Shown here piece by piece: positions 104-3,551 of a stretch of 5,353 bases of DNA. The notes under the pieces are model-generated. The model saw only the letters and a list, made by a program, of their open reading frames with translations. It had not been told where the DNA came from and did no database searches. Origin of the DNA: Escherichia coli (GTDB lineage Bacteria; Pseudomonadota; Gammaproteobacteria; Enterobacterales; Enterobacteriaceae). The position numbers were made by a program, and so were the translations under genes. Every line of letters starts with the position of its first letter. Position 1 is the first letter of the stretch. The DNA lies in the NCBI RefSeq assembly GCF_003334765.1, contig NZ_QOWT01000066.1. The stretch is one strand, 5' to 3'.

Positions 104-2293
104 TTAATCAGCTAATGGCTGCGGGCGACCAATCAAATACCCTTGCAGATATTGCACCCCGAGCTTATGCAATAGCGCCTGCTGCTGTTGCGTCTCGACA
201 AACTCCGCGACCACACTCAATGACTTCGCTTTCGCCAGATCGGTAATTGATCTCACAATCATCGCATCCAGCGTGTTCGTGACAATATCTTTCACAAAGA
301 CGCCATCAATTTTGATGATATCAGCCTGCAAACGCTTTAACCGTTCGTAGTTGGCATATCCGGTGCCAAAGTCATCAATCGCAATCCGGAAACCAAACTT
401 ATGCAGCTGCTCGATGTTGTACATGCTGCTTTCTGCGTTAGAAAACGCCTGCTCCTCGGTGATCTCAAGAATGACCGCCTGCGGGGAGATGTGATAACGC
501 TTAAACAGACGAATAATCCGCCCGGCAATATTCTTTTGCAGCAGCGTGAGCGGCATTAAATTGACTGAAAAGCGCGGTCCTTTTTTGTCGCAAGGGTGTG
601 TTGCCAGCCACTTCAACAAGGATTCCAGCACTTGCAAATCAAAACGCGCGCTAAGGTTAAACTGAGCAATAAGGGGCAGAAACTTATCCGGGGTCATAAT
701 GCCGCCGTCATATTTCAGTCGCGCGAGGATCTCATCATAACCTTCACCCTCTTTGTTGCGAATTGGCTGGGCGTAGAGCAGCAAATCACCCTGATCTAAC
801 GCCGTGCGAATGGTATTCAGCAATAGCACCTGTTTAGTGGTCTGCCCGGAAACCATCTCCTCTCTGCTATCCAGCGCCAGCACATGATGATGTGCGCAGG
901 ATTGCTCCGCCAGCCAGCTTAACTGCCCCAACAAGGGTTGCAGGGTTTCCTGATTTCCATCAAAACGCCCCCAGGCAGCACCATAGCCCATATCCAGCCC
1001 GGTATTGTTCCAGTGAATTTGCCGACTATTCAGGATGTTAACCATATGCTGGAGTCGCCCTTCCGTTTCCGGCCCGCTCAGCACTAACAGCAGTTCACTA
1101 CCCGGCAATTGATACAACTTTTCGTTTTCCTGCATCAACGGCAGCAGCGTACGGCAAATTGAGCGGATACAGTGAACGCGCATCATTAAGCCGTAATGAC
1201 GACTCATAAACTCAAGATTATCAATGCGCAGGCAGCAAAAACTCTTGCCCGCCTCTTGCTCCGGCGCTTGTTCCAACGCACGAAAGTTGGGTAGGAGCGT
1301 TAACGGATCTGTCAGCGCCTGCAAATGCCAGCGGCGATTAAGCCATTCACTGCGATGATAAATGCGCACCATATAGAGCAGGCAAACGCTAAAGGAAATC
1401 AGCACCGCAAGAATAAATGCCAGCGAATATTCGGTTTCCACCCCTTGCAAAAAGTTCTGGTTGTAATTCAGAAGGCAAAGCGTTGAAACAGCCCAGGTGA
1501 GATTTAAAAACGGATAGCGAAGCTTACCGACCCCGAGGGTAAAGATGATGAAGAAAACGGGTACCAGGTAACCGGCAATAAAGTCGTTTTCATAAGGTGT
1601 GCACAACAGAAGTAGCAGCACGCTTAACGCTGCCAGCCAGCTTAAGGTAAATGCGCGTTTCTCTTTGCCCAACGACGGAGCGATATCCCTGCGCCACAAT
1701 ATCTGCGCAAAGTGGGGACTTACAATCATGCGAGTGAGATAGTAGAAAAGCATGTTGTAAATCAGCACAGCGGTGAAAAGGCTTAGCAAATCAACGACCG
1801 TGAAAATGGCATCCGCATCGCCGAAAAAGGTGGATATCTTTAGCGGGAAATCAAAGAAGCTCCCCACAAGATACATGCTGCATTTGATGCCGATCGGCGT
1901 CACCAAACCAAGCCAGAACAGACGTTGCCAGACATATCGGCTGGTCAATCCATAACGCCAACGCGTCCCCAGCTGCCAGCGTAATATTGCGCAGGCACAC
2001 AACACGACAAACGTCTGGCTACCGAGCATGACCGCAGTCTGTAAAAAAGAGAGATGAAAGTTCCACAGATTGGTGCAAAACATCCCGCATAAAACGGGAA
2101 CGACACCGCGCCAGCCAAAGATAAACAAGATTGACTGCATTACGCACAGTGGCATCCACGCCAGAAAGATATAACTGGAATGGATAATGGCAAGTGGCGA
2201 AATAAAACGGGATAGCTGAATAAGTACCACGGTGAGCGTAAACGCTAGTGTGAATATCTTGATATTTTTTATCAGGTTATGCTCCACAAACAT
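104..2293 (-). CDS. pdeA: Cyclic-di-GMP phosphodiesterase, 729 aa: N-terminal polytopic membrane domain (MASE1-like), degenerate GGDEF domain, C-terminal EAL domain
   Basis: Long minus-strand ORF ending at TAA (rc of 104-106). The ORF track extends it to a GTG at 2408-2410 (768 aa), but the first in-frame ATG (rc of 2291-2293) gives 729 aa, the length I recall for E. coli YfeA/PdeA. The N-terminal ~300 aa are hydrophobic. The GGDEF position reads PGSEL (nt 1091-1105). EAL motifs are intact: EIL-A-R (nt 725-733), DDFGTG (nt 359-376), EFVET (nt 191-205). Confidence 0.88.
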   Translation of the reverse strand: MFVEHNLIKNIKIFTLAFTLTVVLIQLSRFISPLAIIHSSYIFLAWMPLCVMQSILFIFGWRGVVPVLCGMFCTNLWNFHLSFLQTAVMLGSQTFVVLCACAILRWQLGTRWRYGLTSRYVWQRLFWLGLVTPIGIKCSMYLVGSFFDFPLKISTFFGDADAIFTVVDLLSLFTAVLIYNMLFYYLTRMIVSPHFAQILWRRDIAPSLGKEKRAFTLSWLAALSVLLLLLCTPYENDFIAGYLVPVFFIIFTLGVGKLRYPFLNLTWAVSTLCLLNYNQNFLQGVETEYSLAFILAVLISFSVCLLYMVRIYHRSEWLNRRWHLQALTDPLTLLPNFRALEQAPEQEAGKSFCCLRIDNLEFMSRHYGLMMRVHCIRSICRTLLPLMQENEKLYQLPGSELLLVLSGPETEGRLQHMVNILNSRQIHWNNTGLDMGYGAAWGRFDGNQETLQPLLGQLSWLAEQSCAHHHVLALDSREEMVSGQTTKQVLLLNTIRTALDQGDLLLYAQPIRNKEGEGYDEILARLKYDGGIMTPDKFLPLIAQFNLSARFDLQVLESLLKWLATHPCDKKGPRFSVNLMPLTLLQKNIAGRIIRLFKRYHISPQAVILEITEEQAFSNAESSMYNIEQLHKFGFRIAIDDFGTGYANYERLKRLQADIIKIDGVFVKDIVTNTLDAMIVRSITDLAKAKSLSVVAEFVETQQQQALLHKLGVQYLQGYLIGRPQPLAD

Positions 2294-2464
2294 GAGTACA
2301 CTACTCTCACTGATCGGGGTTTTCAGGCACACAAATAATAAGTTTATTCGCATCGCGAAGCAAACAGGGGGCCAGCCTGTTGCCGATTTTTCATCCAATG
2401 ATGCTTTCACCAGGCGGCACTAACCCGGACGTAGACTGTATTACAAAAGCGGCAAAAAGCAGAG

Positions 2465-2757: not shown

Positions 2758-2812
2758 ATGAACTACTAATAGACCCACATACATTCAGGGAATTGTTATG
2801 TTCAAGGAGAGG

Positions 2813-3157
2813 ATGACACCAGATGAACTTGCCAGACTGACCGGCTATAGCCGCCAGACCATTAATAAATGGGTACGCAAGGAAGGCTGGACAACGTCAC
2901 CAAAACCTGGCGTCCAGGGTGGCAAAGCCCGACTGGTTCACGTCAATGAACAGGTTCGTGAATATATTCGCAATGCTGAACGTCCAGAAGGTCAGGGAGA
3001 AGCGCCTGCCCTTTCTGGTGATGCGCCGCTTGAAGTATTGCTGGTGACACTGGCGAAAGAGATGACGCCAGTTGAACAAAAACAGTTTACATCCTTGCTT
3101 CTGCGGGAAGGGATTATCGGATTGTTACAACGCTTAGGGATTCGCGATAGCAAATAA
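2813..3157 (+). CDS. yfeC: Small putative DNA-binding protein of unknown function (YfeC family, DUF1323-like), 114 aa
   Basis: ORF ends at TAA 3155-3157. I chose the ATG at 2813 because it is preceded by AAGGAG (2804-2809) and gives 114 aa, the length I recall for E. coli YfeC. An in-frame upstream ATG at 2798 would give 119 aa. The N-terminal helix-turn-helix-like segment is TPDELARLTGYSRQTINKWVRKEGW. Confidence 0.8.
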   Translation: MTPDELARLTGYSRQTINKWVRKEGWTTSPKPGVQGGKARLVHVNEQVREYIRNAERPEGQGEAPALSGDAPLEVLLVTLAKEMTPVEQKQFTSLLLREGIIGLLQRLGIRDSK

Positions 3158-3158
3158 T

Positions 3159-3551
3159 ATGAAAAGATTACGCAATAAAATGACCACCGAAGAACTGGCT
3201 GAATGCCTCGGTGTGGCTAAACAAACTGTTAACCGTTGGATCAGAGAAAAAGGCTGGAAAACGGAAAAATTTCCCGGCGTGAAAGGCGGTCGTGCCAGAC
3301 TTATTCTGGTCGATACGCAAGTTTGCGAGTTTATTCAGAACACGCCAGCCTTCCATAACACACCAATGTTGATGGAAGCTGAAGAGAGAATTGCTGAATA
3401 CGCTCCTGGAGCACGCGCCCCGGCGTATCGACAAATCATCAACGCGATAGATAATATGACAGACATTGAGCAGGAAAAAGTCGCGCAATTTTTGTCACGT
3501 GAAGGAATTCGCAATTTCCTCGCCCGTCTCGATATTGACGAATCAGCATAA
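3159..3551 (+). CDS. yfeD: Small putative DNA-binding protein of unknown function, paralog of YfeC, 130 aa
   Basis: ATG at 3159 lies 1 nt after the yfeC stop (TAAtATG); the ORF ends at TAA 3549-3551. The N-terminal segment TTEELAECLGVAKQTVNRWIREKGW...PGVKGGRARL parallels YfeC, and the C-terminal segment MTDIEQEKVAQFLSREGIRNFLARL parallels YfeC MTPVEQKQFTSLLLREGIIGLLQRL. Confidence 0.85.
   Translation: MKRLRNKMTTEELAECLGVAKQTVNRWIREKGWKTEKFPGVKGGRARLILVDTQVCEFIQNTPAFHNTPMLMEAEERIAEYAPGARAPAYRQIINAIDNMTDIEQEKVAQFLSREGIRNFLARLDIDESA

Follow-up and report, generated by a model that had tools for sequence, protein, structure and literature searches.

Escherichia coli PdeA combines a MASE1 membrane domain and a degenerate GGDEF domain with an EAL domain of apparently intact catalytic site

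Background

Proteins in which a GGDEF-like and an EAL domain lie side by side raise the question of whether they make c-di-GMP, degrade it, or do both. This question is posed by a gene in the stretch of Escherichia coli DNA analysed here (the window, 5,353 nucleotides), for which the original prediction had described a degenerate GGDEF domain next to an apparently catalytic EAL domain. We consider it highly probable that the encoded protein, PdeA, consists of an inner-membrane MASE1 domain of about ten helices, a GGDEF-fold domain unable to make c-di-GMP, and an EAL domain whose catalytic site is complete.

The pdeA gene and its locus

A single open reading frame of 729 codons plus stop occupies positions 104-2293 of the window on the minus strand (ORF listing and translation), with its ATG start codon at 2293-2291 and its stop codon at 106-104. 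The original prediction had left the strand unstated.

104..2293, minus strand: pdeA (yfeA, b2395) coding sequence, 729 aa plus stop; ORF and translation, with 100% identity to K-12 pdeA (WP_000497400.1)

The reading frame has 100% nucleotide identity to pdeA of E. coli K-12, and the gene order also matches K-12 records, the neighbourhood comprising tRNA-Ala, yfeC, yfeD, gltX, and tRNA-Val in both. The protein therefore has no differences from K-12 PdeA, whose MASE1-GGDEFdeg-EAL architecture has been published (PMC6510439). Compared with MG1655, the window has one tRNA-Ala copy where MG1655 has two, a difference that lies only outside pdeA. The gene belongs to the E. coli core, at least 80% of it being found in 5421 of 5426 complete genomes, and its product is a member of the PdeA/YfeA orthologue group, which we sampled with 29 orthologues of 54% to 71% identity.

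An in-frame upstream extension starting with GTG at 2410 was rejected as the start of pdeA: the MASE1 domain begins at residue 16 of the protein initiated at ATG 2293, and the orthologue consensus and RefSeq both begin at that ATG. A scan of the region from the tRNA-Ala terminator to the pdeA start detected no convincing sigma-70 promoter. Assignment to an NCBIfam equivalog was likewise rejected, as no model reached its cut-off (the top model, DibA, scored 138 bits where 980 are required). The NCBIfam result says no more than that PdeA is a GGDEF-EAL type protein.

The MASE1 membrane domain

1349..2248, minus strand: MASE1 domain, aa 16-315, about ten transmembrane helices; Pfam PF05231, E 7.2e-67

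The match to PF05231 is full length (model positions 2-298 of 299) and far beyond chance, in agreement with the original prediction of a multi-helix membrane domain within the N-terminal ~300 residues. Hydropathy analysis identified about ten hydrophobic segments in the first 315 residues, separated in part by K/R-rich loops at residues 105-124 and 192-213. Together with the positive-inside rule, this predicts ten helices and a cytoplasmic C-terminus. The MASE1 region is helical throughout in the AlphaFold2 model, and the domain may sense a signal. The top 50 Foldseek matches of the full-length model included no solved MASE1 relative. Because the pTM of the full-length model is only 0.41, it does not fix the arrangement of the domains or the path of a signal between them.

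A GGDEF fold with a replaced active site

866..1318, minus strand: degenerate GGDEF-fold domain, aa 326 to ~476; weak Pfam PF00990 match plus AlphaFold2/Foldseek
1175..1228, minus strand: RIDNLEFMSRHYGLMMRV, aa 356-373, former GTP/metal-binding segment; alignment with DgcZ, DosC, and RbdA
1121..1132, minus strand: QENE, aa 388-391, in the place of an RxxD inhibitory site; alignment partners are RSSD in DosC and REGD in RbdA
1091..1105, minus strand: PGSEL, aa 397-401, at the GG(D/E)EF signature position; translation and alignments

The profile match to PF00990 spans residues 326-423 but no more than positions 1-109 of the 161 in the model (E 7.4e-4), and is marginal by itself. The fold is clearer in an AlphaFold2 model of residues 318-492 (pLDDT 84, pTM 0.79), which forms a full GGDEF fold and whose top 50 Foldseek matches in the PDB are all GGDEF domains, the best being DgcZ (3tvk; TM 0.74, 17% identity, ~165 columns). 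The marginal profile match and the modelled fold thus place this region among GGDEF domains at the level of the fold. Many database entries for PdeA orthologues give no GGDEF domain.

PGSEL was predicted at nucleotides 1091-1105 and lies exactly there. It occupies the column of GGEEF (206-210) in DgcZ and of GGDEF in DosC, PdeR, and RbdA, which makes diguanylate cyclase activity very unlikely, as originally proposed, and the position reads PG(S/N/C)EL across the 29 orthologues. The other residues expected of an active cyclase, such as DgcZ or DosC, are also missing. R356 stands in place of the metal-binding Asp (DgcZ D165, DosC D333), S364 in place of the guanine-binding Asn (DgcZ N173, DosC N341), and V373 in place of the guanine-binding Asp (DgcZ D182, DosC D350). 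An RxxD inhibitory site, common in diguanylate cyclases though not obligatory, would lie five residues ahead of the signature, where PdeA has QENE. Judged from these alignments, the degeneracy of the domain appears complete, with signature, metal, base, and inhibitory-site residues all replaced.

These replacements bear on the annotation of the gene. About 33 of 40 sampled RefSeq pdeA records are labelled 'bifunctional diguanylate cyclase/phosphodiesterase', and the GGDEF fold is retained in the model, as would be expected if the domain made c-di-GMP under some conditions. However, the PGSEL signature, R356 at the metal position, and S364 and V373 at the guanine positions argue against synthesis, as does the absence of an intact signature throughout the wider MASE1-x-EAL family. 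In Salmonella, yfeA as the sole GGDEF gene did not drive c-di-GMP-dependent PGA synthesis (PMC5464674). We regard a bifunctional PdeA as scarcely credible.

A degenerate GGDEF domain could have kept its ligand while losing catalysis. The domain of Caulobacter crescentus PdeA (CC3396) has a degenerate GEDEF motif, retains GTP binding, and acts as a GTP sensor. The two proteins share a name, in both a degenerate GGDEF precedes an active EAL domain, and the C. crescentus EAL structures (3u2e/4hjf) match the E. coli model, but C. crescentus PdeA is an unrelated, soluble, PAS-containing protein. The common domain order, the preserved GGDEF fold, and the 63% mean identity of the GGDEF-like domain among orthologues (against 54% for MASE1, the least conserved part) would fit allosteric activation of the EAL domain by GTP in E. 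coli as well. Against this, the guanine- and metal-contacting residues that a GTP-binding degenerate domain would keep appear to be lost from E. coli PdeA, replaced by S364, V373, and R356. The helix that bears the phosphate-binding Lys/Arg of cyclases is LGQLSWLAEQSCAHHH in PdeA, in a part where the alignment is uncertain. A Caulobacter-like GTP sensor is accordingly a very unlikely description of this protein.

The EAL domain

122..817, minus strand: EAL domain, aa 493-724; Pfam PF00563, E 2.7e-59, model positions 2-236 of 236
719..733, minus strand: EILAR, aa 521-525, EAL-motif Glu and conserved Arg; aligns with PdeL EVLVR, DosP EALAR, and PdeR EALVR
560..562, minus strand: N578, metal-binding Asn in the motif SVNLM; aligns with PdeL N200 and DosP N635
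452..466, minus strand: EITEE, aa 610-614, with E610 and E613; aligns with PdeL E232 and E235
359..376, minus strand: DDFGTG, aa 640-645, with D640 and D641 as metal ligands and loop 6 beginning within it; counterparts in PdeL are D262 and D263
302..313, minus strand: KIDG, aa 661-664, catalytic Lys K661; aligns with PdeL K283
191..205, minus strand: EFVET, aa 697-701, with E697 and E700; aligns with PdeL E319 and E322 (EGVET)
122..145, minus strand: QGYLIGRP, aa 717-724, conserved Gln Q717; aligns with PdeL Q339

The PF00563 match is full length and far beyond chance. Pfam places both the GGDEF and the EAL domain where they had been claimed, the former weakly and in part. The closest solved structures to PdeA are Pseudomonas aeruginosa RbdA (PA0861; 5xgb) and the EAL domain of MucR (5m1t). 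The latter is the best phmmer match of the PdeA EAL domain in the PDB (E 1.4e-37), and the modelled EAL domain superposes on it with TM 0.87-0.91 and rmsd 2.0-2.5 A (Foldseek). RbdA aligns with PdeA over GGDEF and EAL together (E 3.7e-36), but has an intact GGDEF signature, a REGD inhibitory site, a GTP-binding GGDEF domain (5xgd), and a PAS sensor instead of MASE1.

Catalytic residues were compared with PdeL, PdeH, DosP, PdeR, and PdeF as well as with MucR and RbdA. EIL-A-R, DDFGTG, and EFVET are all retained, as predicted, at residues 521-525, 640-645, and 697-701. E521 and R525 pair with E141 and R145 of PdeL, and the E, L, and R of EILAR are invariant in the 29 orthologues. PdeH agrees at the E, N, E, D, and D positions and differs at the conserved Arg, where it has V52. 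No essential metal-binding residue is lost, and E521, R525, N578, E610, E613, D640, D641, K661, E697, E700, and Q717 are each invariant among the orthologues. Two positions depart from the textbook motifs. PdeA has Phe for the middle Gly of EGVE, as does the active phosphodiesterase RbdA, with which it has AEFVET in common. Loop 6 reads DFGTGYAN, against DFGTGYAT in the active PdeL, its last two positions differing from the textbook DFG(T/A)GYSS. In the alignment, PdeA has the loop 6 motif and every catalytic and metal-ligand residue, and each metal, substrate, and catalytic position pairs with that of characterised phosphodiesterases, consistent with the proposal of an active enzyme.

EAL domains can also serve as receptors. 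LapD and FimX are without EAL metal-binding and catalytic residues. A catalytically silent PdeA of their kind would use the EAL domain to bind c-di-GMP and would transmit a signal through the membrane, and the dual-domain model of PdeA fits both enzyme structures and the GGDEF-EAL structures of LapD (from Pseudomonas fluorescens and Vibrio cholerae). The metal-binding and catalytic residues of PdeA are, however, all present and invariant, and Salmonella YfeA is required for a fall in c-di-GMP induced by 5-oxoproline (PMC9509341). We therefore judge a silent receptor to be extremely unlikely. The bifunctional enzyme, the GTP sensor, and the silent receptor were thus all rejected as readings of PdeA. 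For E. coli PdeA itself we infer phosphodiesterase activity from these residues and from Salmonella genetics. A literature search with partial full-text coverage turned up no study in which PdeA from E. coli was assayed for phosphodiesterase activity in vitro.

Conservation and genetics of PdeA/YfeA relatives

The GGDEF-like domain of the 29 orthologues retains several invariant residues in the former active-site region (S364, H366, R372, E391, P397, G398, and E400). Among more distant MASE1-x-EAL proteins, with identities as low as 26%, none has an intact GGDEF signature and most retain the EAL residues.

Salmonella enterica YfeA (STM2410) is an orthologue, 69% identical across 99% of the sequence, and has the same PGSEL and EAL residues. 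Mutation of yfeA impaired motility of Salmonella in a yhjH background (PMC4992967). From the 5-oxoproline response, external 5-oxoproline may be proposed as the best candidate signal for E. coli PdeA. MASE1 is the least conserved part across the orthologues, and a ligand or signal could be carried over to the E. coli protein only by analogy. In E. coli CFT073, the biofilm defect of a yfeA mutant was complemented by an exogenous phosphodiesterase and by an exogenous diguanylate cyclase alike, so the authors were unable to say which activity mattered (PMC3484386).

PdeF (YfgF), a paralogue within E. coli, has the three domains in like order and is 30% identical to PdeA across 711 aa (E 1e-98). 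Its signature is likewise degenerate (SGNDL), and its EAL residues are intact. PdeF differs in its anaerobic expression and in modulating the response to aspartate. E. coli YfeA fails to reproduce this phenotype, and the paralogue data are therefore not transferable to PdeA (PMC3718329).

Proposed function

In the arrangement that we favour, MASE1-degenerate GGDEF-EAL with the EAL domain as the catalytic unit, the cytoplasmic EAL domain would hydrolyse c-di-GMP to linear pGpG with two divalent metal ions. E521, N578, E610, D640, D641, and E697 would coordinate the metals, helped by K661 and E700. The GGDEF-fold domain, itself catalytically dead, may be a structural and regulatory connector, the state of MASE1 being relayed to the EAL domain through it and through a long helix that extends from the last transmembrane segment (residues 290-326). 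Domain positions, fold, residue identities, and conservation have been established here, and catalysis, the relay of a signal, and its identity are proposals.

Direct protein contact offers another output. PdeR, PdeL, and the DgcE-RdcA pair are precedents for enzymes of the 'trigger' type. An active phosphodiesterase could likewise act mainly by touching a partner through MASE1 or through the surface of the pseudo-GGDEF domain, whose conservation despite its catalytic death is strong. The GTPase RdcA docks onto the MASE1 domain of DgcE, which is also a proteolysis determinant (PMC6510439), and PdeA gives a ladder of proteolytic fragments as DgcE does (PMC5635695). On the other side, the literature search found no reported partner of PdeA, and we hold a trigger role as the main output to be unlikely. 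Similarly doubtful is a combined proposal in which the pseudo-GGDEF domain, being better conserved than MASE1 and keeping invariant residues in its former active site, is more than a passive linker and has gained a new function, by binding another small ligand or by docking a partner as in a trigger-type enzyme, and PdeA is a direct membrane sensor of external 5-oxoproline.

Implications

The MASE1-GGDEF(degenerate)-EAL order, PGSEL, and the intact EAL residues of PdeA are already known. An inactive GGDEF with an active EAL domain in this architecture has been described (PMC6510439, PMC3718329), and residues identical to those found here are listed for YfeA in Table 1 of PMC3484386. The original prediction had itself called the arrangement expected and not novel, and these published tables bear it out. 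The gene, its domain order, PGSEL, and the EAL residues thus carry little weight as a discovery. The residue evidence contradicts the bifunctional name that RefSeq gives to most pdeA records, and the complete, family-wide degeneracy of the GGDEF domain counts against a GTP-sensing role of the Caulobacter type.

Gene identity and domain organization

The sequence is part of an E. coli K-12-type chromosome: K-12 records are 100% identical to the whole window (megablast), and its annotated gene order is pdeA, tRNA-Ala, yfeC, yfeD, gltX, tRNA-Val. The pdeA gene (yfeA, b2395) occupies exactly 104-2293 on the minus strand, with 729 codons plus stop and its ATG at 2293-2291. We took this ATG as the start because the MASE1 profile, which begins at residue 16, the consensus start of the orthologues and the RefSeq start all agree on it; on the same grounds we rejected a GTG at 2410, up to which the frame is open for 39 further codons (2294-2410, minus strand). 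Some database orthologues are longer (767 and 811 aa) and, to guess from their length, may have mis-called upstream starts. As a core gene of the species, pdeA is represented by 80% or more of its length in 5421 of the 5426 complete E. coli genomes, almost always with an identity of at least 95%.

Three domains make up PdeA: the membrane domain MASE1, a dead domain of GGDEF fold, and an EAL domain with a full set of catalytic residues. The GGDEF and EAL domains were both placed by Pfam where the original prediction had them, the GGDEF match being marginal; for many orthologues, as for the E. coli cluster itself, the precomputed Pfam annotation names MASE1 and EAL only.

Domains and motifs of PdeA (minus strand)
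Residues 16-315: MASE1, Pfam E 7.2e-67, model 2-298 of 299
Residues 326-423: GGDEF, Pfam E 7.4e-4, model 1-109 of 161
Residues 493-724: EAL, Pfam E 2.7e-59, model 2-236 of 236
1105-1091, minus: PGSEL, aa 397-401, codons CCG GGT AGT GAA CTG
719-733, minus: EILAR, aa 521-525, by translation
359-376, minus: DDFGTG, aa 640-645, by translation
191-205, minus: EFVET, aa 697-701, by translation

The N-terminal 300 or so residues form the multi-helix membrane domain that had been proposed. A Kyte-Doolittle scan found about ten hydrophobic segments within aa 13-309, in agreement with the ten segments described for MASE1 (PMC6510439), and the region is helical throughout in a full-length AlphaFold2 model. 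Two loops (aa 105-124 and 192-213) carry five K/R each and, given ten helices with N-in, C-in topology, share a side with the C-terminal domains. In the full-length model, whose pTM is only 0.41, the last transmembrane segment is connected to the GGDEF-like domain by a long helix (aa 290-326).

A GGDEF fold with a lost active site

Since the GGDEF profile match is weak, the fold was tested independently with an AlphaFold2 model of aa 318-492 built from 20 homologues (mean pLDDT 83.9, pTM 0.79). Its strand-helix order is that expected for a GGDEF domain, and the best 50 Foldseek matches in the PDB are all GGDEF domains, the closest being DgcZ (3tvk; TM 0.74-0.75, 165 columns, 17% identity). The model thus indicates an intact GGDEF fold at roughly aa 326-476. 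Alignment of these residues with PdeR and with two active E. coli cyclases, DgcZ and DosC, gave the same columns as a phmmer alignment to Pseudomonas RbdA (5xgb).

Active-site positions in DgcZ, DosC and PdeA
GG(D/E)EF signature: GGEEF, GGDEF, PGSEL (397-401)
Metal-binding Asp: D165, D333, R356
Guanine-binding Asn: N173, N341, S364
Guanine-binding Asp: D182, D350, V373
RxxD inhibitory site: RDYE, RSSD, QENE (388-391)

Translation and alignment to all four proteins put PGSEL at the signature position, nt 1091-1105, as predicted. With the metal, guanine and RxxD positions also lost, the degeneracy is far wider than the signature originally noticed, and cyclase activity, already doubted on that signature, is unlikely. 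RefSeq names for the identical gene conflict, with "bifunctional diguanylate cyclase/phosphodiesterase" in the majority of sampled records beside "sensor domain-containing phosphodiesterase" and "EAL domain-containing protein". A bifunctional enzyme, although the commonest RefSeq name implies one, is contradicted by these residues. GTP sensing by a pseudo-GGDEF domain, as in the different, same-named Caulobacter PdeA, is also unlikely, since E. coli PdeA no longer has the residues that bind the base and the metal.

An EAL domain with its catalytic residues intact

PdeA was aligned with its paralogue PdeF and with four characterised enzymes, PdeL (YahA), PdeH (YhjH), DosP and PdeR, all translated from NC_000913.3. 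It agrees with them at every functional position, except that PdeH has V52 in place of the Arg. The eleven EAL positions, with their PdeL counterparts in brackets, are E521 (E141), R525 (R145), N578 (N200), E610 (E232), E613 (E235), D640 (D262), D641 (D263), K661 (K283), E697 (E319), E700 (E322) and Q717 (Q339). Pseudomonas MucR EAL (5m1t, E 1.4e-37) and RbdA (E 3.7e-36) match at these positions as PdeL does (phmmer), and all eleven residues are invariant in 29/29 orthologues. No essential metal ligand is lost from PdeA. The EIL-A-R, DDFGTG and EFVET motifs reported earlier are all present. PdeA has EFVE where the textbook motif is EGVE, but active RbdA likewise reads AEFVET, and its loop 6, DFGTGYAN, is near the DFGTGYAT of PdeL; both of these small departures from consensus are harmless. 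The EAL part of the full-length model superimposes on MucR EAL with TM 0.87-0.91 and rmsd 2.0-2.5 A.

The agreement of all eleven residues with those of characterised enzymes supports the reading of PdeA as a c-di-GMP phosphodiesterase, the activity itself being predicted. With the catalytic set complete, it is unlikely that PdeA is a silent receptor of the LapD or FimX kind. That it combines catalysis with a trigger-type role has a low probability.

Neighbouring genes and related records

Features beside pdeA
2502-2577, minus: tRNA-Ala(GGC), the single copy in the window (region 2380-2800)
2471-2494 and 2610-2638, minus: terminator and promoter elements, respectively, of tRNA-Ala
2798-3157, plus: yfeC
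3159-3551, plus: yfeD

K-12 MG1655 and most E. coli carry two tandem tRNA-Ala genes (alaX/alaW) with a 115-bp period, whereas the window has one. When 60 records were sampled at even spacing, the one-copy arrangement was seen in 4 chromosomes, among them the K-12 derivative MC1061 (100% identity); it is likely the result of unequal recombination between tandem copies or of assembly collapse. A near-consensus sigma-70 promoter (TTGACA-17-TATGAT, 11/12 matches) just upstream of the tRNA and a strong intrinsic-terminator hairpin with T-run just downstream insulate its transcription unit from pdeA. A promoter scan of 2294-2470 found no comparable match for pdeA. Adjacent yfeC and yfeD, one base apart, encode small HTH-type "YfeC-like" regulators and are paralogues (38% identity, E 3e-27). 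Outside the window, the 314 sequences of Shigella flexneri cluster P0028 represent a protein of 440 aa, named "MASE1 family protein", that shares 99% identity with the first 60% of PdeA and looks like the product of a truncated pdeA without the EAL domain.

Function and conservation in the family

Most of the functional evidence is on YfeA of Salmonella, which is 69% identical to E. coli PdeA. Both c-di-GMP and aggregation drop in response to 5-oxoproline, and YfeA is needed for this (PMC9509341). Losing it in a yhjH background reduces motility (PMC4992967), and a strain with yfeA as its sole remaining GGDEF gene fails to make PGA in the c-di-GMP-dependent manner (PMC5464674). In E. coli, PdeA undergoes strong proteolytic turnover (PMC5635695), and the biofilm phenotype of CFT073 yfeA could not be attributed to one activity or the other (PMC3484386). 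A literature search of partial coverage found no in-vitro assay of E. coli PdeA. The architecture had been called expected rather than novel, and it is indeed already known: exactly these residues are tabulated for YfeA (PMC3484386), with the GGDEF called inactive and the EAL active (PMC3718329). The original observation is confirmed and its interpretation supported. By established EAL enzymology, the EAL domain would hydrolyse c-di-GMP to pGpG with two metals, and the architecture suggests that the linker helix, together with the pseudo-GGDEF domain, may pass control from MASE1 on to it.

Among the 29 orthologues (54-71% identity) the signature motif is PG(S/N/C)EL, and mean conservation is higher in the GGDEF-like domain (63%) than in MASE1 (54%). 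A whole-library phmmer search provided 25 MASE1-x-EAL relatives, mostly full-length and down to 26% identity, for alignment. In none of the 25 is the GGDEF signature intact (PGNEL, SGNDL, PGYDL and SECEL are among the variants), and most retain the EAL catalytic residues, indicating that the dead domain is an old, maintained feature of the family.
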